Below are positions 4,801 through 40,220 of a stretch of 64,000 nucleotides of DNA, piece by piece (position 1 is the stretch's first letter; the number at the start of each line of letters is the position of its first letter). The DNA comes from Tagaea sp. (GTDB lineage: Bacteria > Pseudomonadota > Alphaproteobacteria > CACIAM-22H2). Both the position numbers and the translations under genes were made by a program. The notes beneath the pieces were generated by a model that saw only the letters and a list, made by a program, of their open reading frames with translations, did not search any database and had not been told where the DNA came from. The stretch lies in the NCBI GenBank assembly GCA_044356395.1, contig JBIKWI010000001.1, positions 3,921-67,920 of the forward strand. Direction: 5' to 3'.

Positions 4801-5637
4801 CTAGATGGCCGCGAGCCTGTAGATGCGCCGTGCATTGCCACCCTCGAGCGCCAGACGATCCGGAATCGGCAGCGCCGCCCTGTCGAGCAAGGTCCGGCTT
4901 GCCGAAGCCCATCGGGCATAACCGCCACGCAGGTTGATGACCGGCCAGTTGCTGGCCCACATGATCCTTGCCGGGCCGAAGCATGCCAGCAGGTGTCGAA
5001 ACGCCGGTTCGAGCATTTCCGCTTCCCAGTTTTTCGGTGCTTCCTCGGCAAGTCCGGAAAACTTCGTCGAGACCGACGGAAAAGCGGCGATCCGTTCGAT
5101 CGCATCGGTCCAGTCCCGTCTGTCGGTTCGCCGCAAGGGCGCACTCGCGCCATGATCGACGACGATGCGAAGATCCGGAAATGCAGCTGCGACAGCCGCG
5201 ATCGCAGTCGCGTGTTCGGCGCGCGCAATGACATCGAGCGACAGACCTGCCTCGACAAGTGCCGCGAGGCCGGGGCGAATTCGGTCTTCGGCGAGCCAGT
5301 CGACCGGATCGACACGATTTAGCATGGCCCGGACGCCGACGATCTTCGGACGTGCGGCGAGTGCGCGGACGCACTCGCGCACATCGCCGGCGGAAAGATC
5401 GACCCATCCGACGACTCCGCGAACTTCGGCGATGTTCGCGCTCACGTCGATCAGATGATCCGTCTCGCCGGAATCCGGGGCGGACTGGATCGCAACCGCG
5501 CCGGTCACTCCGGCATTTTCCATCAGCGGCCGCAAGTCGTCCGGCATGGCCTGACGCGCGAGCGACGGCTCACGACGGACAATGAGGATGTCGTCCTTGC
5601 GATGCATGTCCCAGAAATGCACATGTGCGTCGATCAT
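4801..5637 (-). CDS. Amidohydrolase-2 family hydrolase (lactonase-like, e.g. aldonolactonase)
   Basis: Starts MIDAHVHFWD, the metal-binding motif of amidohydrolase_2 lactonases; start ATG shares ATGA with the upstream AKR stop. The 345-aa ORF is an N-terminal extension. Confidence 0.8.
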   Translation of the reverse strand: MIDAHVHFWDMHRKDDILIVRREPSLARQAMPDDLRPLMENAGVTGAVAIQSAPDSGETDHLIDVSANIAEVRGVVGWVDLSAGDVRECVRALAARPKIVGVRAMLNRVDPVDWLAEDRIRPGLAALVEAGLSLDVIARAEHATAIAAVAAAFPDLRIVVDHGASAPLRRTDRRDWTDAIERIAAFPSVSTKFSGLAEEAPKNWEAEMLEPAFRHLLACFGPARIMWASNWPVINLRGGYARWASASRTLLDRAALPIPDRLALEGGNARRIYRLAAI

Positions 5638-6569
5638 GGCAACGGACACGCCCGGTCGATGAGACCGGTCTGCTGGAGCGATCGCCAGAATGCTCCTGGA
5701 ATGGGAACCTCGAGCATGTCGAGGCAGTCCCGGAGTTCGCGGGGACTGCGTGCGCCCAACAGAAGGGTCCGGATGGCCGGATGTGCGAGCGGAAACTGCA
5801 ACGCCGCTGCCCGGAGCGGAATGCCGTAGCTCGCACAAAGCGCTTCGATCGATCGCGTCCGTTCCAGAATGGCCGCAGGTGCCGGATCATAGTGGAACAC
5901 GGCGCCTGCGACCGCACCGGTCGCGAGGATGCCCGAGTTGAAGACGCCACCGACGATCAGCCGCGTGTCCGCACGCTCGGCGACCGGGACGAGACCGAGC
6001 ATGGACTGGTCGAGAAGCGTGTATCGGCCGGCGACAAGGACGGCGTCGAAGCGGGCCCGTGCCATCAGGTCGAGCGGCGCTTCGACCTTGTTAGCCCCGA
6101 TCCCGATGCCGCCGATCCTGCCGCTCGAACGAAGTCGTTCGAGTTCCGGGTAGGCCGCCATCGCTGCGTCCGTCCGGCCTTCGACGTCGTGGAGATGCAC
6201 CAGGTCGAGGCGATCGGCGACGAGCCGCCGAAGACTGTTCTCGATGGAGCGTCGTGTCGCATCGGGCGAATAGTCCCAGATGTCGGCCGCCCGGCGGACG
6301 CCGCCCGGCGGAGCGGCGGCTTGCCCGTAAGGCCGGCTTACACCTGTCTTCGTCGAGAGGAAAAACGCATCCCGCGGTCGGCGCGACAGTGCGCGGCCGA
6401 TCCTCTCTTCCGAGAGTCCGCCGCCATAGAGCGGCGACGTGTCGAACGTCCGGATGCCTGCGTCCCAGGCAGCGTCGATCGCGGCCAAGGCATCCGCATC
6501 GTCGACCGGATCGAAAAGCACGCCTAAGGCGGCTCCGCCCAGACCGAGGCGCTCGTAAGGAATTCTCAT
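5634..6569 (-). CDS. Aldo/keto reductase family oxidoreductase
   Basis: MRIPYERLGLGGAALG...DTSPLYGGG AKR signature; ATGA overlaps at both ends. Confidence 0.85.
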   Translation of the reverse strand: MRIPYERLGLGGAALGVLFDPVDDADALAAIDAAWDAGIRTFDTSPLYGGGLSEERIGRALSRRPRDAFFLSTKTGVSRPYGQAAAPPGGVRRAADIWDYSPDATRRSIENSLRRLVADRLDLVHLHDVEGRTDAAMAAYPELERLRSSGRIGGIGIGANKVEAPLDLMARARFDAVLVAGRYTLLDQSMLGLVPVAERADTRLIVGGVFNSGILATGAVAGAVFHYDPAPAAILERTRSIEALCASYGIPLRAAALQFPLAHPAIRTLLLGARSPRELRDCLDMLEVPIPGAFWRSLQQTGLIDRACPLP

Positions 6570-7327
6570 CGCTGGACGATCCCCCAGCGCTGGACCGTCG
6601 CCCGCTCGAGCGGGACAAACACCAGCCGATCCATCACCAGCCAGATCAGGCCGATCGCGATCATGCCGATCAGGACCGTTTCGGTGCGATACCACTGGAC
6701 TGCTTCGATCGTCATGTATCCGAGACCGTTTGTTCCGGCGATCATTTCACCGGCCACCAATGCCCGCCACCCGTAGGCCATTGCGGTCCGGAACCCGACG
6801 ATTAGCTGGACCAGCGCGCCAGGCAGAATCAGGACTGTGGCAAGGCTCAGACCGCGTCCGCCAAGCGAGCGGACGGCGCGGTGAAGCGCCTGCGGGATCG
6901 CCTGCACGCCGATCACCGTGTTGTAGAGCATTGCGAAAAAAATCGTGTTCGCGATGACGAAAACGACCGACCCGATGCCGATGCCGAACCAGATGATCGC
7001 AAGTGGTACCCACGCGATGCCGGCGATCGATTGGAGGAAAGTCAGCAGGGGCTTGAGCGTGTCCGCGACGTGACGGTTGAGCGCGATCGCGATGCCGAGC
7101 GGCACGGCAATGCCCGCACCCAGGGCGAAGCCGAGCGCGAGACGGCCGAGAGAGCCGGCGATATGGCCTGCGAGCGTTCCGTCCGCCGCGATCTCCCGCA
7201 GATGTATCCATACGTCCGGTAGCGGCGGCAGCATGTAGGAAGGATAGTCGATCGCAAGGGGCAGGATTGCCCAGATCGAGAGCGCCAGTCCGAAAGGCAC
7301 GAGCCCGATGAGCGAAGCGGCTTTCAT
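6566..7327 (-). CDS. ABC transporter permease, NitT/TauT (SsuC-like) family
   Basis: Six-TM binding-protein-dependent transport permease profile; ATGA overlap with the upstream permease. Confidence 0.85.
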   Translation of the reverse strand: MKAASLIGLVPFGLALSIWAILPLAIDYPSYMLPPLPDVWIHLREIAADGTLAGHIAGSLGRLALGFALGAGIAVPLGIAIALNRHVADTLKPLLTFLQSIAGIAWVPLAIIWFGIGIGSVVFVIANTIFFAMLYNTVIGVQAIPQALHRAVRSLGGRGLSLATVLILPGALVQLIVGFRTAMAYGWRALVAGEMIAGTNGLGYMTIEAVQWYRTETVLIGMIAIGLIWLVMDRLVFVPLERATVQRWGIVQR

Positions 7328-8142
7328 GCGCGCTGCTCCGCCTCGATCACGAGACCCCAGCGCTCGACGGTCGCCCGCTCGACGGGCTTCAGGTAGAACT
7401 GGTCGATCAGCAGCCAGAGCAGGCCGACCGAGATCATGCCCACGATCGTGCGCGCCGTCTGCTGGGTCTGTGCGCCTTCGAAAATCAGGTAGCCGAGCCC
7501 GGTCTTCGCCGCGACGATCTCAGCGAAGATCAGTCCCCGGAACGCGAAACCCGCACCGACACGCAGGCCAGTGATGATGCTCGGCAGGGCTGCCGGCAGG
7601 ATGACGTTGACCAGCACCTGCCATCGGTTCGCGCCAAGAACCCGGACGGCGTTGATCAGCGGCTGCGGAACCGTGCGGACCCCTACCAGCGTGTTGTAGA
7701 CGACAGGGAAGAACACCACATAAGTCAATGCGATCAGGATCGTCTTGTAGCCGTAGCCCCACCAGATGACGAATATGGGTATCCATGCGACCTCGACGAT
7801 CGCGAAGAGGAAGTTGATCGTCGGCGACAGAAGACGCGAGGCGGTCGCGTTGAGCCCGATGAGGATGCCGAAGAATATGCCGGCGCATGCGCCGATCGCG
7901 ACGCCTACCGTATAGCGCTCAAGGCTGTCGATGATATAGACCGGCAGGATCCCTTTGCGCACGAGATCGACGAATGCAGCCGCGACGTCGGAAGGTGCCG
8001 GATAGAAGTACGGCTCGAGCCCGACAAGCGGGACCGATATCTGCCATGCCGCCAGGAAAAGCAGGATGCCGAGCGCGCCCTTTGCAGGGCGTTCGAGCTT
8101 CTTGCGCAGCGGAATGCCGGAGGACGCTATCGACCCGGCCAT
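7324..8142 (-). CDS. ABC transporter permease, NitT/TauT family (second permease of the same importer)
   Basis: Start taken at MAGSIASSG (ATG at 8142); SsuC-like profile; the 413-aa ORF upstream of it is a low-complexity extension. Confidence 0.8.
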   Translation of the reverse strand: MAGSIASSGIPLRKKLERPAKGALGILLFLAAWQISVPLVGLEPYFYPAPSDVAAAFVDLVRKGILPVYIIDSLERYTVGVAIGACAGIFFGILIGLNATASRLLSPTINFLFAIVEVAWIPIFVIWWGYGYKTILIALTYVVFFPVVYNTLVGVRTVPQPLINAVRVLGANRWQVLVNVILPAALPSIITGLRVGAGFAFRGLIFAEIVAAKTGLGYLIFEGAQTQQTARTIVGMISVGLLWLLIDQFYLKPVERATVERWGLVIEAEQRA

Positions 8143-8450
8143 TTCCGCACCCCGCGCACCCAGTAGGCGGCTGCGGCTTCGCGCAGCGCCGTCGGGTCGA
8201 CATCCATCAGGAATATCTCCGTGCCGCGCACCTCGATCAGGCGACCGATGGCTTGGAGCCGGGTCACGTGAAATCCTTCCGGCGCGAACGCCAGCGTAAC
8301 GATGTAGTGATCCTTGGCTGTTCCAACCCCACCTGCTTGAGCAAGGGTGTCGGCATGGTAGCGCCCCCACGCCGTCCATGCCGCTGCGACGGCAAGGACA
8401 GCGATCGTCGCGGCAAAAGTCCGGAAAAGCGGGTGCCGGCGGTCGATCAT
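8127..8450 (-). CDS. Hypothetical 107-aa protein with a single N-terminal TM helix, embedded in the ABC importer operon
   Basis: ATG at 8450 shares ATGA with the ATPase stop; the 3' end overlaps the next permease start by 16 nt. Codon usage and GC3 match neighbouring genes. Without it there would be an unexplained ~300-bp gap in an otherwise tightly coupled operon. No family recognised. Confidence 0.55.
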   Translation of the reverse strand: MIDRRHPLFRTFAATIAVLAVAAAWTAWGRYHADTLAQAGGVGTAKDHYIVTLAFAPEGFHVTRLQAIGRLIEVRGTEIFLMDVDPTALREAAAAYWVRGVRKWPGR

Positions 8451-9235
8451 GCGGCCTGCCGGTCCACGCCGCGGACCGAAGCGAGGACATGATCCTTGAT
8501 GCGGGCGAACTCGGCATCTGTACCCAACTGCGACCAGATACGCCGGTCGCGGGCGATCGGCACATCGACGATTTCCTTCACGCGACCGGGCCCGGGTGTC
8601 AGCACGGCGACACGGTCGCCGAGAAAGCATGCCTCCTCGACGCTGTGCGTGACGAAAAGGACCGTGATTCGCGCGGCAGCCCAGATACGAAGCAACTCCT
8701 CCTGGAGTGTCATCCGGGTCTGGGCATCGATGGCCGCGAACGGTTCGTCCATCAGCATGACCTCCGGCTCGTTCGCCAGGGTCCGTGCGACGGCCGTGCG
8801 TTGCTTCATGCCGCCGGATAGTTCGTGGGGATATTTCTGCGCTGCGTCCGCCAGATTCGCCATTTCCAGATAGTGCCGCGCACGCTCGTGACGCTCGGCC
8901 TTCGGGACGCCCTTCAACTTGGGGCCGAGCGCCACGTTGTCGAGCACCGTCATCCAGGGAAGCAGCGCGTACTCCTGGAACACGACGCCCCGATCGGCGC
9001 CCGGACCGTCGATCGGCCGCCCGTCGAGAGTGAGGATCCCGGCGCGCGGCTTGAGGAACCCCGCGATCGCCGATATCAGCGTCGACTTTCCGCAGCCGCT
9101 CGGACCAACGACGCAGAAGAACTCGTCGGCGAGGACATCGAGCGACAGGCCGTCGACCGCGACGTGGCGCTCGCCACGCGTCTCGTCGCGGTACTCCAGC
9201 CTGAGATCGCGCGCGGCGATCCGGACATTCGTCAT
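8447..9235 (-). CDS. ABC transporter ATP-binding protein, NitT/TauT family
   Basis: Walker A GPSGCGKST; signature LSGGMKQR; Walker B LLMDEP; start at MTNVRIAARDL. Confidence 0.9.
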   Translation of the reverse strand: MTNVRIAARDLRLEYRDETRGERHVAVDGLSLDVLADEFFCVVGPSGCGKSTLISAIAGFLKPRAGILTLDGRPIDGPGADRGVVFQEYALLPWMTVLDNVALGPKLKGVPKAERHERARHYLEMANLADAAQKYPHELSGGMKQRTAVARTLANEPEVMLMDEPFAAIDAQTRMTLQEELLRIWAAARITVLFVTHSVEEACFLGDRVAVLTPGPGRVKEIVDVPIARDRRIWSQLGTDAEFARIKDHVLASVRGVDRQAA

Positions 9236-9248
9236 CGTTCCGGCCCTC

Positions 9249-10274
9249 TCAGAGGCGCCGATCCGCCGGGACCGGCTTGAGATCCGAGAAAAACTGCGGT
9301 GCCGTCGCTTCGACGTGCTTGTAGAACTGCGCGTCGACCACGCTTGCGGCCGGCAGGGAACGGGCCATCCGCTTGTCGGCAACGAGGGCCGGTATGGTCG
9401 TCTTGTCGTAGCCTTCGAGGGTGTTCTTGGTCACCCGCAGGTCGTAGAGCGAGTTCCGGATGGCCACCTTCATGATGTCCATGTCGATGCCGGTGATCCA
9501 ACGCATGTTGATCTCCGCTGCCGCGTCGTAGTTCTGGCGCAGCCACTGGTGCGCCTCCGAGAACGCGACCATGAAGCGGCGGAGCTGTTCCGACTTCTGG
9601 GCGATCGTTGCGCGTGTCGTCAGGATCGATCCCGGATCGTAGCAGCTCTTGCAGTTGCCCCGGATGACTTCGATGGCGCCGGGCGTGCGAAGGGTCGCCA
9701 CTGTCGCCCAAGGCTCCCATGCCGCGACGGCGTGCACGTCGCCTTGGCGAAGAGCCGTGGCCGTGTCCGCCGGCCGGATATTGACGAGCGTCATGTCCGT
9801 GTCCTTGAGACCGGCCTGGGCGAGTATTCCGAGAAGATAGCCCTCCGCACCCGTCCCGCGTGCGAGACCGATTTTCTTGCCCCGCAGGCTCTGCAGATCG
9901 TCCTTGCGGACGCCACCCTGCGGTGTCGTGATCAGCGCATTGTTCTGCGAGTAGTTGGTCGACAGCGCGTCGCCGTGCAGGTGTCCGATCAGGACGATGG
10001 GCTGGCCGCGCGACACGCCTGCCAGAAACGGGATCGATCCCATGATGTTGACGTCCTGCGCATTGGCGAGCAGTCCGTTGATCATTTCGACGCCGGTCTG
10101 ATACATCACGATCTTCGCGTCGAGGCCGTGTTTGGCGAATATTCCGCGTTCGACGCCGATGAAGGCGGCGGCGTGATCGGTTGCGTAGGCCGCGCCGATC
10201 TTGATCTCGAGCGGCTGGGCCGTTGCCGCGCTTGCGCCAAGCAGCGCGATTGCGGCGATCAGTTTCTTGAACAT
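9249..10274 (-). CDS. ABC transporter substrate-binding protein, NitT/TauT (SsuA/NMT1-like) family, Sec signal peptide
   Basis: N-terminal MFKKLIAAIALLGASAATAQP signal; SsuA-like fold. Confidence 0.85.
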   Translation of the reverse strand: MFKKLIAAIALLGASAATAQPLEIKIGAAYATDHAAAFIGVERGIFAKHGLDAKIVMYQTGVEMINGLLANAQDVNIMGSIPFLAGVSRGQPIVLIGHLHGDALSTNYSQNNALITTPQGGVRKDDLQSLRGKKIGLARGTGAEGYLLGILAQAGLKDTDMTLVNIRPADTATALRQGDVHAVAAWEPWATVATLRTPGAIEVIRGNCKSCYDPGSILTTRATIAQKSEQLRRFMVAFSEAHQWLRQNYDAAAEINMRWITGIDMDIMKVAIRNSLYDLRVTKNTLEGYDKTTIPALVADKRMARSLPAASVVDAQFYKHVEATAPQFFSDLKPVPADRRL

Positions 10275-10317
10275 CTTTGTTTCCTCCTGGTGTCGTTCGG
10301 CTCTGTCGGCCGTTGCT

Positions 10318-11799
10318 TCAGTTTCTGTCGAGGCGGTTCTGCTCCGGTTTCGTCGGCCATAGGTAAGCGTTGGCCGGATTCGTCCGGCGGGCCCAGGCGC
10401 CGATCACGTCCTTGTCGAGACGGCGGGCACGCATGCGGGCATCGACGTCGTCCGGCGACCAGTCGGCGAGCAATCGTTCCAGCAGGCGTGCCAGGATCGG
10501 CGTGTGAGCCGGCGATTCGGCGAGGTCGTACAACTCGTCGGGATCGGATGCGAGATCGAAGAGCTGCGGCCGGTAGCCGTGGTAGTAGACCAGCTTCCAT
10601 CGGTCCCGGCGAAGCATGCGCTGGCGCACCGCCATTCCGCCGGTCCAGACCGGAACTTCATCGGTGCAGTATTCTGATACGGTTTCGTCGAGCCAGGGGG
10701 CCGAGCCGTTCTTGGCCACGTCGAGAAAGCTGCGTCCTTGCGAACCGGGAAGAGGCGGCGCACCCAATGCAGCGAGCATCGTCGCGGTCAGATCGACGAG
10801 ATTGACCACCTGCGAACGGCGTTGTCCTGCCGGAATCGTCCCGGGCCAAGACAAGATCATCGGGACGCGAACGGACTCCTCGTAGAAGGTGTGCTTCCAC
10901 CAAAGTCCGCGCTCGCCGATTTGGTCGCCGTGGTCCGTCGTATAGACGATCAATGTATCTTCGGCGAGACCGTTGCGGTGAAGGGCAGCGAGCACATCGC
11001 CGATCATCGCGTCGAGCCGGTATGTCAGCGCGTAGTATGCGGCGCGCGCACGATGCACGTCTTCCGGGTCGACGGTCTCGATGCCCCTGTTGGCGCGCCA
11101 CCATGCAAGCCACGGATGCTCGGTGCTCGGCAAAGGTGCCGCGATCCGCGGCCGGCGGACCTTGCTCGCGAACAGTTCGTAGTCTGCCGTCGTCGCGACA
11201 TAAGGCGGATGAGGCAGCATGAAGCCGACGGAAAGCGCGAACGGATCGTCATTTCCGGACCTGCGTTGCATGCCAAGTCGGTCGATGTACGCGATCGCTG
11301 CCCGGGTCACGTCCCGATCCTTGATCTCGTAAACGCTTTCCCCCGGGCCGCTGCGTACGACACTCGTACGGTGCGGATCGTTCGTTTCGTTGAGCACGCC
11401 CATATCGTGACGCGGAACGCCGCCCCAATTGGGACTATGGTCGCCGATTTCGCGTTCCGTATAGCCGTGCAACTGGTCCGGACCCATCGCATGCAGGCGA
11501 CCGATCAGAATGGGCCGATAGCCGGCTGCGCCCAGCGCGTGCGGCCAGGTGGCCCTGTCGGACGCGAGAAAATCGTCATTGGTCCAGCAGTCCTGGGCCG
11601 ACGGGTGTCGCGCCGTCAGCATCGACATGCGGGACGGCACGCAGATCGGCGAAGGGCAATAGGCGGCGTCGAACGTGACTCCGGTCGCGGCGAGCGAGTC
11701 GAGATTGGGCGTCTTGGCGATGCTATCGCCGTAGCAGCCCGCCACGTGGAACGCGTGTTGGTCGGAGAACAGGAAAAGGAGGTTCGGCCGCTTCTTCAT
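10318..11799 (-). CDS. Cys-type sulfatase (formylglycine-dependent), predicted cytoplasmic
   Basis: CVPSRMSMLTARH (C-x-P-x-R) sulfatase signature near the N-terminus; LLFLFSDQH; no signal peptide. Confidence 0.9.
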   Translation of the reverse strand: MKKRPNLLFLFSDQHAFHVAGCYGDSIAKTPNLDSLAATGVTFDAAYCPSPICVPSRMSMLTARHPSAQDCWTNDDFLASDRATWPHALGAAGYRPILIGRLHAMGPDQLHGYTEREIGDHSPNWGGVPRHDMGVLNETNDPHRTSVVRSGPGESVYEIKDRDVTRAAIAYIDRLGMQRRSGNDDPFALSVGFMLPHPPYVATTADYELFASKVRRPRIAAPLPSTEHPWLAWWRANRGIETVDPEDVHRARAAYYALTYRLDAMIGDVLAALHRNGLAEDTLIVYTTDHGDQIGERGLWWKHTFYEESVRVPMILSWPGTIPAGQRRSQVVNLVDLTATMLAALGAPPLPGSQGRSFLDVAKNGSAPWLDETVSEYCTDEVPVWTGGMAVRQRMLRRDRWKLVYYHGYRPQLFDLASDPDELYDLAESPAHTPILARLLERLLADWSPDDVDARMRARRLDKDVIGAWARRTNPANAYLWPTKPEQNRLDRN

Positions 11800-12446
11800 G
11801 GCGCCAGTCCGACGGCCCGTTGATGCGCGATGGTCAAGTGGCGGTCGAGGGCGGTCGCGGCACCCTCGGGGTCGCGCGCGCGGAACCCGGCAATCACGGC
11901 CATGTGCTCTTCGATCGCCGGCCGCACGCGCTCCGGGGTGAAGCGGCGATGCAGGCGAGCCAGACGGATCTTGTCGAAGTTCAGGCGATGGACATCCGAT
12001 AGCGTCCGGTTTCCGAGCCGGTCGATGACCAGATCGTGCATCATCCAGTCGACCCGAAGTGCCTCGTCGAGCGCTTCCCGATCGGGGTTCGGGCGGATGC
12101 GCTTCAGCACGCGAGCCGTCTGCGCCTCGAGATCGCGGATCAGCGACATGGGCGCTTCGGTCGCGAAATGACGTGCAGCGGCAAGCTCCAGTATCCGCCG
12201 CAGCCCGAACGCTTCGTTCAGCAAGGCGACATTGACGTCGGCGATCTGGATGCCGCGCTGCGGGATCAGCCGGACGAGCGCTTCGGCTTCGAGCTTCTTG
12301 AGGGCCTCGCGAAGCGGGCCGATGGGGACCTTTACGATCTCGCTGAGTTCGCGCTGCGTGATGAACTGCCCGGGCTCGAGGGCACGCGCGAAAAGCCGCT
12401 CCTTGAACCGATCATAGGCCTTGTGGCGCAACATCGCTTGGCTCAT
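11796..12446 (-). CDS. GntR family transcriptional regulator (FadR/FCD-type C-terminal domain)
   Basis: wHTH ITQRELSEIVKVPIGPLREALKKLE. Start placed at the MSQAMLRH ATG (12446); the track's upstream start at 12476 would run into the AT-rich operator region. Stop shares ATGA with the sulfatase start. Confidence 0.8.
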   Translation of the reverse strand: MSQAMLRHKAYDRFKERLFARALEPGQFITQRELSEIVKVPIGPLREALKKLEAEALVRLIPQRGIQIADVNVALLNEAFGLRRILELAAARHFATEAPMSLIRDLEAQTARVLKRIRPNPDREALDEALRVDWMMHDLVIDRLGNRTLSDVHRLNFDKIRLARLHRRFTPERVRPAIEEHMAVIAGFRARDPEGAATALDRHLTIAHQRAVGLAP

Positions 12447-12455
12447 GTTTCCATC

Positions 12456-12477
12456 TATAACTGAGATATCAGTCATA
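12456..12477. promoter_or_regulatory. Candidate GntR operator / divergent promoter: inverted repeat TATAACTGA-GATA-TCAGTCATA (core ACTGA-N4-TCAGT) inside an AT-rich island
   Basis: Read directly from the sequence between the GntR start (12446, minus) and the mutarotase start (12514, plus). This is the only AT-rich stretch in the region. A palindrome of this kind is plausible for GntR-family operators, but the assignment to GntR is inference. Confidence 0.5.
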
Positions 12478-12873: not shown

Positions 12874-13772
12874 AACGCTGCCAGGAACGGCGGGCGCGCG
12901 GAGTAGGGCACGCGGATAGCGAGCAGATCGCCGGCAAGCGGCTGGCGTGCGAGTTCCTGTGCGGACAGGACACGGCGCTGGGAAGTCACGAACAGCGTGC
13001 GTCCGTCGGGTCCGCCGAGCGTGGGCATCGTGGGGCGCGATACGGGTAGTTCGACGACGAGGTCGAGCATGCCGTCGGGTCGAAAGCGCTCGATCCTGCC
13101 GGCTTCGATGAGCGCGACCCACAGCCCGCCTTCGGCATCGATGCAACTGCCATCCGGCGCGCCTGTTTCCGGGAACTGAACGAACGGCCGCGCTGGACCG
13201 GCCAATCCGGACGCCGGATCGTAAGCCGCGACTTCGATCGTGCGGCTGCGCGTGTCGCAGAAAAAGAACCGGGAGCCGTCCGTCGAGAAGTCGATCGCGT
13301 TCGGTATGCGGATCTCCGTACGGATCCGGTCCAGCCGACCGTCGAGGTCGAGGCGATAGAGCGAACCGACTGGCGCGCCGGAGCCGGACTTGTCCATCGT
13401 TCCGAACCAGAGTCGACCGGCCGGATCGGGCTTTCCTTCATTGATCCGGGTTGTCGTCACGTCCGATTCGACGGCGACGATGCGTTCCCCCAGACCGTCC
13501 GACGGGTCGAACGGATAGAGGCCATCCTCGAGGCCGACGAGGAGCCCGCCCGTCCGTCGCCCGACCAGCAGGCCCGGCATGCTGGGAAGCGGGTATTCGA
13601 CTGTGTCCCCACTGCCCGGCGAACAGCCGAGCAGCCGTTGTCCCTGGATATCGACCCACCACAGCATACCCGAACCGGCGTCCCAGAACGGGCATTCGCC
13701 GGTCACGGCATTGCCGTGGTGGATCGCGACGGTCTCGTGCCGACCGATCGTCCGCACGTCCGGCTTCGTCAC
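12870..13772 (-). CDS. SMP-30/gluconolactonase/LRE-like lactonase
   Basis: N-terminal GECPFWD...LWWVDI and repeated six-bladed-propeller motifs; GTG start at 13772 overlapping the SBP stop (GTGA); 3' end overlaps the convergent rhaM stop by 4 nt. Confidence 0.8.
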   Translation of the reverse strand: MTKPDVRTIGRHETVAIHHGNAVTGECPFWDAGSGMLWWVDIQGQRLLGCSPGSGDTVEYPLPSMPGLLVGRRTGGLLVGLEDGLYPFDPSDGLGERIVAVESDVTTTRINEGKPDPAGRLWFGTMDKSGSGAPVGSLYRLDLDGRLDRIRTEIRIPNAIDFSTDGSRFFFCDTRSRTIEVAAYDPASGLAGPARPFVQFPETGAPDGSCIDAEGGLWVALIEAGRIERFRPDGMLDLVVELPVSRPTMPTLGGPDGRTLFVTSQRRVLSAQELARQPLAGDLLAIRVPYSARPPFLAAF

Positions 13773-14986
13773 GCCAGCTTCCAGGAATCGATTTCCCAGA
13801 CCGGCGCGCCGCGGGTGTCCGGTGCCGAGCGGTCGGCGAATGCCGCTGGGGCAGGATCCTTGCCGACCCGTTCCCAGGCCTCTCGCGACAGCGGTGCTCC
13901 CAGAGCAAGAGTGCGTTTGACGGAGTCCGGGTTGAGCTCGCTCTGGAAGATCGTCTTGACCTTCGACATGCCGATCAGGGACCGCGCGTCCCCCTCGGTG
14001 ATCCACGACCAGCCGCGCTTGCGGTACAGGATGTTCTCGACATAGGGACGCTGGGCCGCCCGGTCGCTGAACCACTCCTTGTTGGCGAGGTCGATTACCT
14101 CGTCTGTCGTCATCTTCGTCGTCAGCTGGACAGCCCGTGCATTCGCGACGAGAAGCGCCACGACGGCCTTGGGGTTCTCGCGCATGAACTGTTCGCGTGC
14201 GACCCACCAGATCCGGTGCGGATAGTAGGCTTCGGGATGGAATCCGGTCTTGCTGAAGCTCGCGACCCTGTGGCCCTCGCCCTTTCCTTCAGGACCGTCG
14301 TAGGCCGGGCCGGTCGATCCGTCGTTTCGCACGAGCGCCACGAGCTCGCCCGCATTCTCCGCGCCCCGCGCAGCCGGATCGACGTTGAGGACGGCATCGA
14401 TTCCCGGCTGTGCGCGCGTCAGCTCGGTGAACGCCTGGATATTCTTGACCGTGATGTTCAGCTCCTTGACGTCGTCGGTCCCGAAATGCGCCTTCAGCAT
14501 CAGCATCAGGACAAGATGAAGATCGGACCCGACGATCGTCAGGATCGTCTTGCCGCGCAGATCGTCGAGCTTCCTGATCGGCGATCCTTTCGGGACCTGC
14601 AGCGGAAACTTGATGCCGCCGCCGCCGATCGCGATCGGTACGGCCGGATTGGGCTGGGCGAGGTTCCGGATCGTCGGCGTCGAGCCGAGCATCCCGATGT
14701 CGAGCTGGCCGGCGGCCAAGCCCTGGAGCATCCGGAGGAGAACGGGAAAGTTCAGGTACTCGGCATCGATACGCAAGCCGAGTTCCTCCGCCGCCTTCTC
14801 CAGCAGCTTGTCGCGCTGCATCGCGAAAACAAGCGGCGCGCCGTCATTCGTAAGGCCGACTCCCATCGACATCTTCAGCGCCTGGGCCAAGGAGGGGCTG
14901 GCGCGGAAGAGCGGCAGCGCCGCCAGGGCAGCGGCACCGCCCGTCTTCAGGACCGAACGTCTTGTCGTATCTGCATCGCGTTCCAT
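13769..14986 (-). CDS. ABC transporter substrate-binding protein, NitT/TauT (NMT1-like) family, twin-arginine signal
   Basis: N-terminal TRRSVLKTGGAAALAALPL Tat motif; 405 aa, larger than SsuA. Confidence 0.8.
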   Translation of the reverse strand: MERDADTTRRSVLKTGGAAALAALPLFRASPSLAQALKMSMGVGLTNDGAPLVFAMQRDKLLEKAAEELGLRIDAEYLNFPVLLRMLQGLAAGQLDIGMLGSTPTIRNLAQPNPAVPIAIGGGGIKFPLQVPKGSPIRKLDDLRGKTILTIVGSDLHLVLMLMLKAHFGTDDVKELNITVKNIQAFTELTRAQPGIDAVLNVDPAARGAENAGELVALVRNDGSTGPAYDGPEGKGEGHRVASFSKTGFHPEAYYPHRIWWVAREQFMRENPKAVVALLVANARAVQLTTKMTTDEVIDLANKEWFSDRAAQRPYVENILYRKRGWSWITEGDARSLIGMSKVKTIFQSELNPDSVKRTLALGAPLSREAWERVGKDPAPAAFADRSAPDTRGAPVWEIDSWKLA

Positions 14987-15024
14987 GAGGTTCCTCCGGG
15001 TTTTGACTTCGGCGTTTCTGGTTT

Positions 15025-15840
15025 CTACGGTTCTTCGACGATTGCCTGTGCGGCTTCAGAACGGATCAGGTTCCAGATCTGCTCGACGAGTCGAGCCGCT
15101 TCCGGCGACGAGCGGACACCGCTGCGCGGACGAGGGAGGTCGATTGGGACGATCTCTTTGATCTGGCCCGGCCTGCGGCCAAGTACGACGACGCGGTCGG
15201 ACAGGTAGACGGCTTCATCGATCCCATGCGTGACGAAGAGCACCGACTTTCGCTCGACCCCGGGACTGGCGTCGCCCCACAGCCGGAGAAGTTCGTCCTG
15301 AAGGATCACGCGTGTCTGCAAATCGACGGCCGCAAGCGGCTCGTCCATCAGCCAGACCTCCGGCTCGTTGGCGAGCAGGCGCGCGAGGGCGCAGCGCTGG
15401 CGCATACCGCCGGACAGCTCGTGCGGATACCTGTCCTCGAATCCGGAAAGGCCGACCATCTCGATATTCCGCCGGACAAGGTCGGTCCGGCGAGCGGCGC
15501 CGAGACCCCGGGCGAGCGGGCCGAACTCGACGTTTCCGCGGACCGTACGCCATGGGAAAAGAGCGTAGTCCTGGAACATCACGCCGCGTTCCGGGCCTGG
15601 CCCCGTGATCGCCCGGCCATCGAACCGGACCACACCGGACGAAGGTTCCGCGAACCCGGCGACAAGAGACAGGAGCGTTGATTTTCCGCAGCCGGAAGGG
15701 CCGACGATAGACACGAACTCGTTCGGCATGACCTGGAAGGATACGTCGCGCAGCGCCTCGACCTTCGTTCCGTTGCGGGCGGAAACGTAGATCTTCCCGA
15801 GGTTGGCGGCCTCGATCTTGGGGGCGGTCATTTCTGCCAT
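15025..15840 (-). CDS. ABC transporter ATP-binding protein, NitT/TauT family
   Basis: GPSGCGKST; LSGGMRQR; LMDEP. Confidence 0.9.
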   Translation of the reverse strand: MAEMTAPKIEAANLGKIYVSARNGTKVEALRDVSFQVMPNEFVSIVGPSGCGKSTLLSLVAGFAEPSSGVVRFDGRAITGPGPERGVMFQDYALFPWRTVRGNVEFGPLARGLGAARRTDLVRRNIEMVGLSGFEDRYPHELSGGMRQRCALARLLANEPEVWLMDEPLAAVDLQTRVILQDELLRLWGDASPGVERKSVLFVTHGIDEAVYLSDRVVVLGRRPGQIKEIVPIDLPRPRSGVRSSPEAARLVEQIWNLIRSEAAQAIVEEP

Positions 15841-16607
15841 GGGGTCACCGCGCGCTGGAGCGAACGAACGCCATAGTCGATGGCCATGCTGATGAGTCCG
15901 ATACTGGCCATGTAGAGAACTAGCCCGTTTATGTCCCGTTTTATGTACAGAGTGTTGACCATAAGCTGCCCCAGTCCGACTGTCGCCGCGCCACCCGGAT
16001 TGACCTTGATGCCGATCGCCATCTCAGCCGCAATGATCGATCCCCACGCGAATGCCATCGCGATGCGTGCGCCGGTGAGCACGACGGGAAGCGCTCCCGG
16101 CACGATGATCGCGTGTAACGTTAGCCATCGTCCGGCGCCGAGTGCGCGCCCGGCGTCGACGAGACGGCGGTCAATGAGCCGCACGGCCTGAATCGTGTTG
16201 AGGACGAACGGGAAGAAGGCGGCATACGCGACGATGAAAAGCGCGGCATTTCCGCGGATGCCGAGCCATAGGAGTGCCATCGGTATCCATGCGATCGGCG
16301 CGATCGCGCGCAGCGAGTCGACGATCGGGTCGAGTGCCCGCCGTACCGGCTCGGCAAGTCCCATGAGCAGGCCCAGCGGAATGCCGAAAAGGGCGGCGAT
16401 CGCAAACCCGGTCGTGACCCGCTGAAGGCTGCCCGCAATGGCAGTCAGTAGCGTGCCGTCGGCAAGCGCACGAACAGCCGCTTCGGCGATTCCGGACGGG
16501 TAAGGCGCGATCTTCGCCGATCCCGTCGCGTGGACGCCCGCTTCCCATGCGACCAGGACAGTCGCGAAGAAAACAAGTGGAGCTGCCCGGCGCTGCTTGG
16601 GCGTCAT
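15828..16607 (-). CDS. ABC transporter permease, NitT/TauT family
   Basis: Start at MTPKQRRAAPLVFF (ATG 16607, ATGA with the upstream permease stop); the 471-aa ORF is an extension. Confidence 0.8.
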   Translation of the reverse strand: MTPKQRRAAPLVFFATVLVAWEAGVHATGSAKIAPYPSGIAEAAVRALADGTLLTAIAGSLQRVTTGFAIAALFGIPLGLLMGLAEPVRRALDPIVDSLRAIAPIAWIPMALLWLGIRGNAALFIVAYAAFFPFVLNTIQAVRLIDRRLVDAGRALGAGRWLTLHAIIVPGALPVVLTGARIAMAFAWGSIIAAEMAIGIKVNPGGAATVGLGQLMVNTLYIKRDINGLVLYMASIGLISMAIDYGVRSLQRAVTPWQK

Positions 16608-17380
16608 GCGCCCTCCATGCGGGTATCCGCACTCCAGCGCGTGAGTCCCGATTGGATACGTCGCAGGACCAGATCGAGCGCGTAGCCGAGAACGCCGATT
16701 GAAAGAATGACGGCCATGACCTTGTCCATGGCGAAGAACTCCTGATACCAGAATATCCGCCAGCCGAGTCCGGCATCGGCACCCGTGAGTTCGGCGGCAA
16801 CCATCGCGGCCCATGCCACACCGAGACTGAGGCGGGCGCCTGCGAGGACCAAAGGCAGTGCCGCCGGCAGCACGACATGCGTGACCACCATGCGCTCGGG
16901 CGCTCCCAGCGACCGCGCGGCGTTGAGGAGGTTCGGGTCGACCTGTCGTATTCCCGCGAGTGTATTGACGAAGATTGGAAACGCCGACGCATAGAAGATC
17001 AGGAAAATCGGCACGCCGCGCCCAATTCCGAAGAAGATGATGGCGAGCGGGATCCATGCGATCGCGCCGATGGGTCGCAGGAATTCCATGAACGGGTCGG
17101 CGATGGCATCGACGATCTCGAACCGGGCGCATAGTACGGCAAGAGCGAGGCCGAGCGTCGCGCCGGCGCCGTATCCGGTCGCCAGATGCACGAGGCTTGC
17201 GGCGATATCGGCAGGCAGATCGCTTCGGAGAAGTTCGAGCCACGCCTTACCTACGGCGGGCGGAGCGGGAACCAGCGTCGCGTTCGCGACTTGCAGCGCC
17301 ACTGCGTGCCATGCAATGCCGACGACGCCGAGCGCAAGGCCGAACTCGGCAAGCCTGCGGAAGTGGCGAAAGACATTCAC
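16604..17380 (-). CDS. ABC transporter permease, NitT/TauT family
   Basis: GTG start at 17380 overlapping the enolase stop (GTGA); SsuC-like profile. Confidence 0.8.
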   Translation of the reverse strand: MNVFRHFRRLAEFGLALGVVGIAWHAVALQVANATLVPAPPAVGKAWLELLRSDLPADIAASLVHLATGYGAGATLGLALAVLCARFEIVDAIADPFMEFLRPIGAIAWIPLAIIFFGIGRGVPIFLIFYASAFPIFVNTLAGIRQVDPNLLNAARSLGAPERMVVTHVVLPAALPLVLAGARLSLGVAWAAMVAAELTGADAGLGWRIFWYQEFFAMDKVMAVILSIGVLGYALDLVLRRIQSGLTRWSADTRMEGA

Positions 17381-18504
17381 GCCGATGGCCCGCGAAGCTC
17401 GGACAGCGAAATCAGCTTTCCGGCGTCGAGCGAGATGCCGAGCCCCGGCCCCGCCGGCAGCGCGCTGTTTCCTTGATGGGTAAGTGGCAGGCTATCGAGG
17501 AGTATCGAAGAGAAGACAGGGCTTTCGTCGTACTGGTGCTCGAGAATCATCATGCCGGGCAGCGTCGCGCAGAGCTGGAGGCTTGCGACATGAGACACCG
17601 GACCGCTCGGATTGTGCGGCGCCACCTTCATGCCGCGAGTCGCCGCGTAGTCGGCGGTCCGGCGGAACTCGACCATGCCGCCGGCATACTTGATATCGGG
17701 CATCAGGACGTCGTACGTGCCGGCATCGATGAAAGGACGGAAGCCTTCGAGCGCAGTTTCGGTCTCGCAGCCGGCCAGCACCGCGCCTAACCGGTTCGCC
17801 TGCGCGCGCAGTTGCCTTAGTCCTTCGAAGTTCTCGGGGTGCTCGGGCAATGGGCATTCGAACCAGGTGACCCCCAGTTCGGCCAGTGCGTCGAGTGCAA
17901 TCGACGCATTGGCGAGATCGAAGCGCCAGTGGCAGTCGACGAAGAGGCGGCGCTTCGGTCCGATTTCCGAGCGGACTGCCGCTGCGCGAGCGATCCCTTC
18001 AGCGACATTTTCGCCGCTTCCTGGCCGGACGGCATCGAATGGCGCGATCTTCACTGTTTCGAACCCGTCGGCGATCGCCTTCCTCGCGCTTGCCGCGAAG
18101 CCCGCCGGTGTCCGGTCGACGGTCCGTCTGTTGATGTTCGCATAGAGCGGAATCGTGTCGCGAACGGTTGTGCCGATAAGGTCGCGCATCGGGCGGCCTT
18201 CACGGCGTCCGGCCGCGTCCCAAAGCGCCTGGTCGAGCGCGCTGGCGATCGCGGCCCCCGCTCGATCGGTGCGGCGCACGCCGCACCGATCGAGCGGGTT
18301 GTCGCAAGGGTGTGCACTTGTGCCGCACAGTTGTGCGGCTAGGGGAGACAATGCCGCGGCGAGATCTCCCTCCTGTCCTGCAAGCGTGGCTTCTCCCCAA
18401 CCGGAGTTTCCGTCGGAGTCGCGGACATGGACGAAGACCCAGATGGTTTTCGCGCTCGCGCGCGCGGCATGGCCGTCGATGGACCGGATTGTGGCAAACG
18501 TCAT
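17377..18504 (-). CDS. Enolase-superfamily enzyme (mandelate racemase / muconate lactonizing family; likely acid-sugar dehydratase)
   Basis: Start MTFATIRSIDG; KxK / D...E...D metal-ligand spacing (KIAPFD...DCHWRF...EHP...DIKYAGG); about 375 aa. Confidence 0.75.
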   Translation of the reverse strand: MTFATIRSIDGHAARASAKTIWVFVHVRDSDGNSGWGEATLAGQEGDLAAALSPLAAQLCGTSAHPCDNPLDRCGVRRTDRAGAAIASALDQALWDAAGRREGRPMRDLIGTTVRDTIPLYANINRRTVDRTPAGFAASARKAIADGFETVKIAPFDAVRPGSGENVAEGIARAAAVRSEIGPKRRLFVDCHWRFDLANASIALDALAELGVTWFECPLPEHPENFEGLRQLRAQANRLGAVLAGCETETALEGFRPFIDAGTYDVLMPDIKYAGGMVEFRRTADYAATRGMKVAPHNPSGPVSHVASLQLCATLPGMMILEHQYDESPVFSSILLDSLPLTHQGNSALPAGPGLGISLDAGKLISLSELRGPSA

Positions 18505-19166
18505 TGCGGCGCCGCTCCGGCCGTACGGATTTTGCGTAGCATTTCCTGTTTTGCCTTTGCCGCGTGCGCCGTCTGAAGGATTGCGGCACCTTCCGCGTCG
18601 CGCTGCGAGAGCGCCACGATGATCTGCCGATGATCGGAGATCACGCCAGCGACGCGTTCTTCGCCGTAGCCGTGGCGTCCCCAAAGCGCGACGATGATGT
18701 TCCAGTGACGGTCGAGAATACGTATCGCTTCGATGTTGCCGGCGGCATCGTTGATGACCGCATGGAACGCCTGGTTTGCGGCGAGTACCCCGGCAAAGTC
18801 GGATCGGGCGGCACTTGCCTCGAGGTCCGACTCGATCCGGCGGATTTCTTCGATCTGATCGGCGCCGATGCGCTCCGCCGCCCGCCTTGCCAGCATCGCC
18901 TCGAGCGCGATGCGCAAATCGAACAGGTCGCGCACGAAGTCGGCATCGACCGCGCGTACGCGGGCGCCCCGGTTCGGCTCGACATTGACGAGACCTTCGC
19001 CCTGGAGTTGGCGAAGCGCCTCGCGGATCGGCATGTGGCTCGTCGTGTAGCGCGCAGCAAGCTCGTCGATCTTGAGACGGCCGCCAAACGGAAACACCCC
19101 GGACAAGATGTCCTGGCGTAGGCGGTCACTGATCGATCTCGCCTCGATCTCCGACAGCACGCGCAT
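18501..19166 (-). CDS. GntR family transcriptional regulator (FCD domain)
   Basis: wHTH LKIDELAARYTTSHMPIREALRQLQGEGLV; ATG at 19166 (track start 19172 is a GTG); stop shares ATGA with the enolase start. Confidence 0.85.
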   Translation of the reverse strand: MRVLSEIEARSISDRLRQDILSGVFPFGGRLKIDELAARYTTSHMPIREALRQLQGEGLVNVEPNRGARVRAVDADFVRDLFDLRIALEAMLARRAAERIGADQIEEIRRIESDLEASAARSDFAGVLAANQAFHAVINDAAGNIEAIRILDRHWNIIVALWGRHGYGEERVAGVISDHRQIIVALSQRDAEGAAILQTAHAAKAKQEMLRKIRTAGAAPQ

Positions 19167-29671: not shown

Positions 29672-30862
29672 ATGCCGACGATCTATGGACAGAAGTTGAC
29701 GCGCCGGGAGTTCGAACGCCGTGTCGGCGCCACGCGGCAGATCGCGGGCGTCAGCCTCGTGACGCTGGATGACGGCGCCGAGCGTGGCGTGCGTGCGGTC
29801 GAATTCCGGACGGGCGCCGGTCTCGACTTTTCGGTTCTCGTCGACCGTACGATGGATATCGGGCGGTTCGACTATCGCGGCGTGCCGTTCGCATGGCAGT
29901 CCGATACCGGATTCCGCAACCCGGCCTTCATGGATCCGATGGGCGACGGCGGTAACGGGTTCATGCGCGGCTTCTCCGGCCTCCTCTGCACGTGCGGCTT
30001 CGACCATGTTCGCCAGCCCGACACTGGGCCGGCCGATCACTTCGATCTGCCGCTGCGCAAGGAGATCGTCTATCCGATGCATGGCCGAGGCGCGTTCCAG
30101 CCGGCCCGGCTCGATGGCTACGGCGAAGTCTGGGATGGCGACGAGTGCACGCTTTGGTGCGAGGGCACGGTCGCTCAGGTCCAGGTCATGGGGGAGAACC
30201 TCGCGTTCGTCCGGCGCGTCGAGGTAAAGGTCGGCTCTTCCGATGTCCGTATCCGCGACACGATCACCAACCGCGGCTTCTCGCGTACGCCGCATCTGCT
30301 GCTCTACCACATCAACATCGGATGGCCGCTGCTGGAGGCCGGTGCCCGCTTCGTGGCGCCCATACGCGGAACGTTTGCGGCGAATGTTCCGCGAGAGAGC
30401 CAGCAGGCAGGCTGGCGCACCCAGATCGATCCTGCGTCGCGCTTCGTCCAGCAGGTTTTCGACCACGACGCCGTCGCCGACGCAAACGGTCGCGTGCCTG
30501 CCGCACTTGTCAATGACCGGATCGGCCTCGGCTTCCTCGTCGACTACGATGCGCGGCAGTTCATTTGCCTGCAGCAATGGCAGGCCTTCGGCGAGGGTGT
30601 CTATGGGTTCGGCATCGAGCCGGCGACGACCCGCTGGGGCAATCGCGCCGACGCCATGCGTCGGGACGAGATCGCGTGGCTCGAACATGGCGAGACGCGC
30701 AGCTACACGACCGTCCTGTCCGTCCTGCACGGGGCGGCCGATATCGCCGCACTCGACGCGCGCGTCGAGGCGATCCATCCCGCCGCTACCGACGAGTTTC
30801 CGGTCCGCAGCGACCAGTCGCCGGGCGGTCCGTTCGTTACAACGCTTCCGAGGGTCCGATGA
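29672..30862 (+). CDS. DUF4432-like protein (galactose-mutarotase / aldose-1-epimerase-like fold), function unknown
   Basis: 396 aa; N-terminal YGQKLTRREFERRVG...GVRAVEF...GLDFSVLVDRTMDI and C-terminal GFGIEPATTRW resemble DUF4432 / aldose-epimerase-family proteins as I recall them. Confidence 0.55.
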   Translation: MPTIYGQKLTRREFERRVGATRQIAGVSLVTLDDGAERGVRAVEFRTGAGLDFSVLVDRTMDIGRFDYRGVPFAWQSDTGFRNPAFMDPMGDGGNGFMRGFSGLLCTCGFDHVRQPDTGPADHFDLPLRKEIVYPMHGRGAFQPARLDGYGEVWDGDECTLWCEGTVAQVQVMGENLAFVRRVEVKVGSSDVRIRDTITNRGFSRTPHLLLYHINIGWPLLEAGARFVAPIRGTFAANVPRESQQAGWRTQIDPASRFVQQVFDHDAVADANGRVPAALVNDRIGLGFLVDYDARQFICLQQWQAFGEGVYGFGIEPATTRWGNRADAMRRDEIAWLEHGETRSYTTVLSVLHGAADIAALDARVEAIHPAATDEFPVRSDQSPGGPFVTTLPRVR

Positions 30863-32331: not shown

Positions 32332-32335
32332 ACGC

Positions 32336-37899: not shown

Positions 37900-38649
37900 A
37901 TGGCGGCGGCGATCGAAATCAACGGTTTGGGCAAGCGCTTCGGCGACGAAGCCGGGCAGCCCGTGCTTGGCAAGGTCGACCTGTCGATCTCCGAGAACGA
38001 GTTCGTCGTACTGTTGGGTCGCAGCGGCTGCGGAAAGACGACGTTGCTCAACATCGTCGCCGGCCTCGAGCAGGCGAGCGCAGGAAGCGTTCGCGTGGAC
38101 GGCGTGGTCGTCACCGGGCCTGGTAACGGCAAGGGCATGGTCTTCCAGCAGGGGGCCCTTTTTCCTTGGCTGACGGCCAAGCGCAACATCGAGTTCGCTG
38201 CCGTCAATCGTGGCCTGCCGCAGGCCCAGGCGGCGAAGCTCGCGGAAGAGCTGCTGGCACTCGTCGGGCTCGCGGGTTCCGAACACAAGTATCCGTTCGA
38301 ACTTTCCGGCGGCATGCAGCAGCGGGTGGCGATCGCACGTGCCCTGGCCCTCGATCCCAAGATTCTGCTTATGGACGAACCGTTCGGGGCGCTCGACGAG
38401 ATCACGCGCAACGAGATGCAGGACGAGTTGCTGCGCGTGTGGGCGCGTCGCCGCAAGACCGTCGTGTTCGTCACGCACTCGATCTGGGAGGGGCTGATTC
38501 TCGCCGACCGGATCCTCGTGATGGCGCCTCGTCCCGGGCGTATCGTGCTGGAGCGACGCATCGACCTGGCGCGCCCGCGCCGACGCAGCGACCCGCAGCT
38601 CGTCGCCCTCTACGACGAGGTCTGGGCGTGTCTGAGGGGCGAAGAATGA
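37900..38649 (+). CDS. ABC transporter ATP-binding protein, NitT/TauT family
   Basis: GRSGCGKTT; LSGGMQQR; LLMDEP. Confidence 0.9.
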
Positions 38650-40201: not shown

Positions 40202-40220
40202 AAACAGAGGAGGCAACGCC

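Follow-up and report, generated by a model that had tools for sequence, protein, structure and literature searches.

A stretch of 64,000 nucleotides of DNA from Tagaea sp. (contig JBIKWI010000001.1, positions 3,921 to 67,920; hereafter the window) carries, at positions 8127-8450 of its minus strand, a small gene inside the operon of an ATP-binding cassette (ABC) importer of the NitT/TauT type. Binding-protein-dependent ABC importers are made up of a substrate-binding protein (SBP), two membrane domains and two ATPases. The small gene probably encodes an extra, fifth subunit of the importer, that is, a stoichiometric accessory specific to one transporter clade, and we put the probability of this reading at roughly 55%. 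Its product appears to be bitopic and conserved, its gene is transcribed together with those of the transporter subunits, and the family to which it belongs strictly co-occurs with one orthologous clade of transporters. It is because the family is found only within the operons of one branch of importers of the sulfonate/sulfate-ester type that an extra subunit becomes the probable explanation; gene-neighbourhood evidence thus supports an earlier note on this DNA, which had interpreted the gene as an accessory subunit.

The gene is an open reading frame (ORF) of the minus strand, 8127..8450 with its stop codon included, and its 107-residue translation from 8450 to 8127 reads MIDRRHPLFRTF...VRKWPGR, followed by the stop; the ends of the protein are MIDRRHPLFRTFAATIAVLAVAAAWTAWGRYHADTL at the N-terminus and YWVRGVRKWPGR, directly before the stop, at the C-terminus. 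Its ATG (8450-8448) and the TGA of the ATPase gene (8449-8447) share the nucleotides ATGA (8447..8450, minus strand). Its own stop codon occupies 8127-8129 and the ATG of the gene for permease 1 begins at 8142, which gives an overlap of 16 nt (8127..8142, minus strand). The earlier note had described the position between the ATPase and permease genes, the length and both overlaps in this way, and the coordinates and sequence agree. Called mechanically, the ORF extends upstream to an ATG at 8630 and codes for 167 amino acids; the extension lies within the ATPase gene in a different frame, and the homologs of 100-107 amino acids all begin at the position that matches the ATG at 8450.

In a word-indexed search, 5.8 billion proteins yielded 15 homologs with 46-100% identity, all of 100-107 amino acids, among which the core TLxFxPExFHVTRLQAIGRxIEV...MDV is invariant. 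When a family profile was run against all 1.84 billion cluster representatives, at least 180 clusters (50% identity) came up at E <= 1e-3, nearly all of 95-135 amino acids, and 43 of the clusters at E <= 1e-10. The window protein has the features of this family, which are a length of about 95-135 amino acids, an N-terminal hydrophobic helix and the motif F-x-P-E-x-F-H...Q..G...YW. Both JGI and NCBI gene callers annotate members, always as 'hypothetical protein' and with the RefSeq homolog included. The label 'unrecognised' given in the earlier note is therefore right only in part, as the ORF had already been called.

GC-rich genomes yield many long spurious ORFs, and dozens are listed in this region, which could make one think of a chance ORF or of a fragment of a neighbour that was called in error. 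The family is found, however, in DNA of 33-68% GC with its length, frame and sequence conserved over that range. In pairwise comparisons of Tagaea-like loci the ratio of nonsynonymous to synonymous substitution (dN/dS) for the small gene is 0.09-0.36, below 0.4 throughout, and that for the flanking transporter, sulfatase and regulator genes is 0.03-0.18 in the same pairs; values so far below 1 imply purifying selection on the small gene. The predicted fold, described below, is confident, and within operons the gene changes its place independently of the others. An extension or frameshifted piece of a neighbour is contradicted by the neighbours themselves, as the ATPase and permease align nearly over their full length with models of their own type, and by the relocation of the small gene in some operons. 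Conserved homologs, low dN/dS and the confident fold model together indicate a real gene; the chance-ORF explanation is effectively refuted already, and we consider it extremely improbable.

No credible Pfam or NCBIfam match was obtained for the window protein or for 47 members of the family that were scanned, and the family profile has no relative among PDB sequences (best E = 4.6). We found no description of such an importer component in the part of the literature that could be searched, and the family may nevertheless have been described elsewhere. SaoXPA was considered as a related system and rejected, being an unrelated selenoprotein-linked system. As judged by these comparisons, the small proteins appear to constitute a new and fairly widespread family. 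No credible natural fusion was found among the profile matches. One match of 245 amino acids (P0016) joins an ATPase C-terminus to the small protein through an out-of-frame upstream extension and is most likely a frameshift error in the contig. The family profile also hits two very long proteins, P0042 (1976 aa) in 4 short stretches and P0091 (5703 aa) in 11, and these matches are probably repetitive or of low complexity. Two soil-metagenome contigs, L028 (431-1552) and L029 (138-1202), show short, broken matches to the sulfatase, the SBP, the small protein and permease 1, squeezed into 1.2-1.6 kb; the pattern looks like an operon copy that has decayed or lost an internal part, or else like an assembly error.

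The gene lies inside a NitT/TauT operon at every locus inspected, whether in Tagaea metagenome-assembled genomes (MAGs), a betaproteobacterial MAG (L011), the contigs L012-L027, L034 and L035, or a plasmid of Agrobacterium (L030). Some contigs are short and display only a part of the operon. Every sufficiently long locus has an NMT1-type SBP, the ATPase and orthologs of both permeases, and these orthologs are 41-97% identical to the permeases of the window, paralogs being 28-37% identical. In the close relatives, which are Tagaea sp. MAGs and an unclassified alphaproteobacterial MAG, the gene order is GntR regulator, sulfatase, NMT1-type SBP, ATPase, small gene, permease 1, permease 2, aldo-keto reductase and amidohydrolase_2. 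The betaproteobacterial MAG (39% identity) has its SBP and sulfatase genes divergently transcribed and keeps ATPase, small gene, permease and permease, with a TGATG overlap. Loci L012 and L035 carry two NMT1 SBPs, a short-chain dehydrogenase/reductase (SDR), ATPase, small gene, two permeases and an amidohydrolase; L014 has SBP, ATPase, small gene, two permeases and a 2-hydroxyacid dehydrogenase, with a sulfatase close by. In L016 (34% GC) the order is SBP, small gene, alcohol dehydrogenase, ATPase, permease, permease and aldehyde:ferredoxin oxidoreductase (AFOR), in L018 and at the P0169 locus it is ComA-like gene, small gene, SBP, ATPase, permease, permease and a split transketolase, and in L034 the small gene follows the ATPase as the last gene of the operon. 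In 11 more metagenomic contigs it stands between the ATPase or the SBP and the orthologs of permease 1 and permease 2.

The plasmid locus belongs to Agrobacterium sp. CGMCC 11546 (plasmid pA, GSF67_RS24585) and reads ATPase, WP_006316190.1 ('hypothetical protein'), permease, permease, SBP; a LysR regulator, a sulfatase and a formylglycine-generating enzyme (FGE) adjoin the transporter. This record is the only one of 72,556 plasmids with a homolog of the small protein, and it is also the sole plasmid among them with a close ortholog of permease 1 (E <= 1e-40). Syntenic conservation therefore extends from all Tagaea-like relatives to the betaproteobacterial MAG, the Agrobacterium plasmid and distant metagenomic members. 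Over these loci the catabolic neighbours vary (sulfatase; ComA and transketolase; AFOR; amidohydrolase and SDR) and the transporter is the sole constant. The position of the small gene varies too, being after the ATPase, after the SBP, before the SBP or last. The earlier note had raised the question whether homologs always sit between the ATPase and permease genes; at the loci inspected they are always within a NitT/TauT operon, but in some at a different position. The ComA-like protein of L018 (651-7035) and of the P0169 locus is of the phosphosulfolactate-synthase family, which hints at a substrate of the sulfonated-sugar or sulfolactate type there.

Overlaps of 1-4 nt between the small gene and the ATPase stop recur in L011, L012, L014, L030 and L034, and the 16-nt overlap with permease 1 recurs in L001, L003, L014 and L031-L033; across distant loci the junction with the permease start consists of overlaps of 4-16 nt or very short gaps. 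Because the overlaps are conserved across loci, they imply translational coupling, as the earlier note had proposed. The 16-nt overlap, which is out of frame, is kept even in L014, a locus of 43% GC, and other loci have 4-nt overlaps or short gaps. The C-terminal W-x-G-(R) is conserved in members with different junctions, so the overlap is not the sole cause of its conservation.

The host transporter itself is, by its protein matches, an ordinary member of the NitT/TauT superfamily. All of its genes are on the minus strand. The ATPase (8447..9235, 262 aa) is TauB/SsuB/NrtCD-like, with matches to ABC_tran at E = 1e-30 and to TIGR01184 and NF008421 at about 1e-70. Permease 1 (7324..8142, 272 aa) and permease 2 (6566..7327, 253 aa) are TauC/SsuC/NtrB-like by Pfam and NCBIfam profiles, are 36% identical to each other and match NF040733, NF007545, TIGR01183 and NF008470 at 1e-26 to 1e-40. 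Nearly full-length alignments join the ATPase and permease to models of the TauB/TauC/SsuC type. The periplasmic SBP (9249..10274), which begins with a signal-peptide-like segment, is of the NMT1/SsuA type (PF09084 at 1e-23, PF13379 at 6e-21, TIGR01728 at 1e-39 and below cut-off), and its closest solved relatives are SsuA (2x26) and 3e4r, which was deposited as 'Nitrate transport protein'. Since all the core transporter proteins score well below the NCBIfam equivalog cut-offs, they are placed in the superfamily and in no named system, and annotation does not make taurine, alkanesulfonate or nitrate the substrate. The small protein is none of the canonical subunits; it has its own ORF in a separate frame and matches no Pfam or NCBIfam model. 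Sulfatase and FGE genes often adjoin the transporter, which suggests that sulfate esters may be the substrate in the sub-branch to which the window belongs.

The remainder of the operon, also on the minus strand, has a GntR/FCD-family regulator (11796..12476) and, as its first enzyme gene, a choline-sulfatase-like sulfatase that scores below the equivalog cut-off (10318..11799). Downstream of the permeases are an aldo-keto reductase (5634..6569), in ATGA overlap with permease 2, and an Amidohydrolase_2-family gene (4801..5637; Pfam assignment taken from orthologs), in ATGA overlap with the reductase gene. The earlier note had stated that every other junction of this operon is an ATGA overlap, and this is right for four of them, namely GntR/sulfatase, permease 1/permease 2, permease 2/aldo-keto reductase and aldo-keto reductase/amidohydrolase; between sulfatase and SBP there are instead 43 nt, in which a strong AGGAGG occurs, and between SBP and ATPase 13 nt. 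Both in the window (4801-12476, minus strand) and in L001 (1353-11995) the sulfatase and importer are joined with the aldo-keto reductase and amidohydrolase_2 genes, and in relatives a RhaM-like mutarotase, an MR_MLE dehydratase and an SDR lie close to the operon. We take this set of enzymes to resemble a non-phosphorylative sugar-acid pathway of the L-fucose/L-rhamnose type, which would presumably mean uptake and desulfation of a sulfated deoxy-sugar.

Three further NitT/TauT-like loci in the window, two of them with two permeases, serve as internal controls. One (13769-18684, minus strand) encodes MR_MLE, permease, permease, ATPase and an NMT1-type SBP, one (37900-41255, plus strand) encodes ATPase, permease, permease and SBP, and the third (43355-44862, minus strand) has a single permease. 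A hidden Markov model of the family, run on all six-frame ORFs of the window (E <= 10), found solely the gene at 8127-8450 and no second copy, and the gene junctions at 13769-18684 leave no space for an extra gene. We had considered the family as a hallmark of all NitT/TauT systems with two permeases and rejected this, as two such loci of the window are without it. For the same reason the small protein is taken to be specific to one orthologous transporter clade. A second sulfatase-like region lies at 30859-33829, and the window is unusually rich in uptake genes of the organosulfur type.

An AlphaFold2 model built on the alignment of 15 sequences has a mean predicted local distance difference test score (pLDDT) of 89 and a predicted TM-score (pTM) of 0.73. 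It shows one long helix at residues 7-40 followed by a folded domain of about 60 residues, with the order beta(47-53), alpha(59-66), beta(70-75), beta(78-84), alpha(86-95), beta(98-103), which places it in the ferredoxin-like/ACT-like class (residues 47-103, positions 8142..8312, minus strand). The hydrophobic core of the helix is at about residues 11-29 (family-mean Kyte-Doolittle value 1.8 for the best 19-residue window), and model and hydropathy together predict the membrane segment there (8364..8420, minus strand). The description in the earlier note of one transmembrane helix and a soluble domain is borne out in its layout, but the domain is of about 60 residues plus a helical stalk rather than about 75.

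Conservation was computed on 114 members, non-redundant at 60% identity. At least 90% of family members keep P57, E58, F60, H61, Q66, G69 and W97. F55, P57, E58, F60 and H61 cluster in the beta1-alpha1 loop and at the start of alpha1, and other conserved positions are Q66, G69 (R70), V84, A93, Y96, W97 and V98. The most conserved motif, F55-x-P-E-x-F-H...Q66...G69-R70 (8241..8288, minus strand), thus covers the beta1-alpha1 loop and helix alpha1. In or just before the membrane segment there are a conserved R-P pair, at the cytoplasmic edge, and T15; conservation of R-P and T15 within the helix argues for a specific partner in the membrane.

The distribution of charges around the helix predicts that the N-terminus is inside and the C-terminus outside. 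Positive charges average 3.06 on the N-terminal flank, with the amino terminus counted, versus 1.75 in the 15 residues after the helix, and acidic residues show the reverse (0.33 versus 1.61). The N-terminal flank is the more positive in 105 of 147 members and the C-terminal flank in 13 of 147. The folded domain is therefore most likely periplasmic, as far as flanking charges predict topology.

A start with positive charges and then a hydrophobic stretch is also what a signal peptide would look like, and its cleavage would release a soluble periplasmic protein of about 75 residues that aids the SBP, either by presenting substrate or by modulating the SBP. The window protein has RR at residues 4-5 and A-A-A at 22-24, and the gene neighbourhood fits a protein of this kind equally well. 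The hydrophobic stretch, however, has about 19-20 residues within a continuous modelled helix of 34, more than one would expect of a signal peptide; neither an A-x-A cleavage site nor a twin-arginine motif is conserved family-wide, and the conserved R-P and Thr inside the segment would be unexpected in a leader that is discarded. We therefore think a cleaved signal peptide decidedly unlikely, and favour a fifth subunit that keeps its membrane anchor.

In the proposed fifth subunit, the N-terminus, short and with positive charges, would lie in the cytoplasm, a single transmembrane helix would run on into a stalk, and a ferredoxin-like domain of about 60 residues would sit on the periplasmic side. 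The subunit would be made together with the ATPase and both permeases through translational coupling, and its helix would pack on the asymmetric permease heterodimer. The periplasmic domain would expose a conserved Glu-His-Gln-Arg surface at the beta1-alpha1 loop, adjoining the site where the substrate-loaded SBP docks, and the small protein might assist or gate docking of the SBP and hand-over of the substrate, or it might stabilise the assembled complex. We infer the topology, the binding to the transporter, its site and its consequence. The bolder proposal, that this is the first dedicated bitopic fifth subunit of a type I ABC importer and that its periplasmic ferredoxin-like domain acts in the transport cycle of one widespread clade of importers of the sulfate-ester/organosulfur type, either by control of SBP docking or by recognition of the substrate, is tentative, and we would give it somewhat less than even odds.

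Whether the small protein has co-evolved with a particular subunit was assessed by the mirror-tree approach, as co-variation of pairwise distances over 15 loci, and here the answer depends on the method. Rank-based partial correlation gives 0.31-0.32 for the permeases (permutation p ~0.02), -0.24 for the SBP and 0.07 for the ATPase, and on the whole the mirror-tree leans towards the membrane components.

Several observations weigh against a fifth subunit of this design. With Kimura distances and Pearson partial correlation the mirror-tree points to the ATPase (0.63). Foldseek gave no match at E <= 1e-3, and its weak top matches include ABCA7 and ABCA1; the basket domain of PmtCD, a cytoplasmic regulator attached to an ABC ATPase, is another weak fold match. 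As the domains of ABCA1, ABCA7 and PmtCD are cytoplasmic and sit on ABC ATPases, these matches suit a cytoplasmic site better. The fold is generic, the ferredoxin-like class being very common, and there is nothing more specific to read from it. Compared with the core subunits, the small protein evolves 2-4 times faster, being about 50% identical where neighbouring proteins are 80-90% identical, and such a rate fits a peripheral or modulatory partner better than an essential part of the structure. Finally, related systems with two permeases in the same genome do without the small gene.

The first two of these points would suit a membrane-tethered cytoplasmic regulator, with its N-terminus outside and its C-terminus inside, whose ACT-like domain lies below the ATPase dimer, binds a metabolite (sulfate or a product of the pathway) and inhibits ATP hydrolysis in trans. 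The C-terminal regulatory domains of MetN, ModC and MalK act in cis. NitT/TauT ATPases, at about 260 amino acids, are without a regulatory C-terminal domain, and the small gene directly follows the ATPase gene in most loci and is coupled to it. ACT domains bind ligands at the beta1-alpha1 loop, which is where the top motif of the small protein is found in a fold of the same class. The charge distribution is nevertheless contrary to this topology in all but a minority of members, and a short N-terminal tail with 2-4 Arg/Lys is poorly suited to translocation. No ACT or other Pfam model matches the sequences (no ACT-type model was matched by 47 members at E <= 1), the rank-based correlation with the ATPase is negligible, and in L016, L018 and the P0169 locus the small gene is apart from the ATPase gene. 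On balance a cytoplasmic regulator is unlikely.

The faster evolution and the absence of the gene from paralogous two-permease systems would also be expected of a transient assembly or quality-control factor, acting in insertion or pairing of the permeases or in protection from proteolysis, or of a hitch-hiking membrane protein. Transporters with small proteins that make them more or less stable are on record (MgtS, MgtU, MgtR and FeoC are such proteins; PMC10710835). Tight coupling, on the other hand, suggests production in fixed proportion with the subunits, and a folded, conserved domain with an invariant polar motif exceeds what a helix-binding stabiliser needs. Such a factor is rather unlikely, if the least so of the alternatives, and a stoichiometric fifth subunit remains the explanation that we prefer.

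Compared with the canonical systems TauABC, SsuABC and NrtABCD/CmpABCD (TC 3.A.1.16 and 3.A.1.17), the four core components of the window system are clear relatives; unlike the canonical NitT/TauT models, it has two distinct permease genes and a fifth gene with no counterpart among curated models. CbiN and NikL, of the metal importers of the energy-coupling-factor (ECF) type, are likewise small, non-canonical membrane proteins encoded in the operon of an ABC-type importer. CbiN is required for activity of its energy-coupling-factor transporter and has two membrane helices that flank an extracytoplasmic loop. The window protein differs in having one hydrophobic segment and no Pfam match, and the transporter class is another one. 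The beta-alpha-beta-beta-alpha-beta fold is common to the window protein and to the ACT/ferredoxin-like regulatory domains, but the C2 domain of MetN, the R domains of ABCA1/ABCA7 and the basket domain of PmtCD are cytoplasmic and fused to ATPases, whereas the window protein is separate, membrane-anchored and predicted to be periplasmic, and its family has no sequence similarity to ACT-like regulatory domains of ABC ATPases. PilO/PilN and GspM/GspL, bitopic proteins of pilus and secretion systems, have an N-terminal membrane helix, a helical stalk and a periplasmic ferredoxin-like domain. Their architecture resembles that of the window protein, but they are larger and their machineries are unrelated.

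Small bitopic partners are known for other transporters, such as AcrZ for AcrB, KdpF for KdpABC, MgtS, MgtR and MgtU for MgtA/B, and LucB for the mycobacterial Mce1 lipid importer; they are encoded with the transporter or regulate it, and are thought to bind its transmembrane domain by one helix (PMC10710835). For type I importers that depend on a binding protein, the same review names no partner of this kind (PMC10710835). A single transmembrane helix is common to the window protein and the AcrZ/KdpF/MgtS type, but the latter are mostly below 60 amino acids and essentially helix, in contrast to 107 amino acids with a folded 60-residue domain, and there is no sequence relationship between the window family and partners of the AcrZ, KdpF, MgtS or LucB type. 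The fifth component has functional analogies, but its features do not fit the definition of the single-helix partners, of the CbiN-type subunits or of the ACT-like regulatory domains.

A conserved, operon-embedded fifth protein with a folded domain that is predicted to be periplasmic departs from the textbook importer. This is noteworthy for transporter specialists and overturns no principle. Even if the protein proves dispensable, its family is widespread, uncharacterised and worth naming. As a true subunit, the protein would lend itself readily to genetics and cryo-EM, as a cultured Agrobacterium strain has the system on a plasmid, and it would provide an annotation marker for one NitT/TauT clade, which in many loci is linked to sulfatases and to catabolism of organosulfur compounds or sugar acids. 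It would then be a new protein family that gives rise to a new architectural variant of ABC importers, and a new way to modulate importers of type I.

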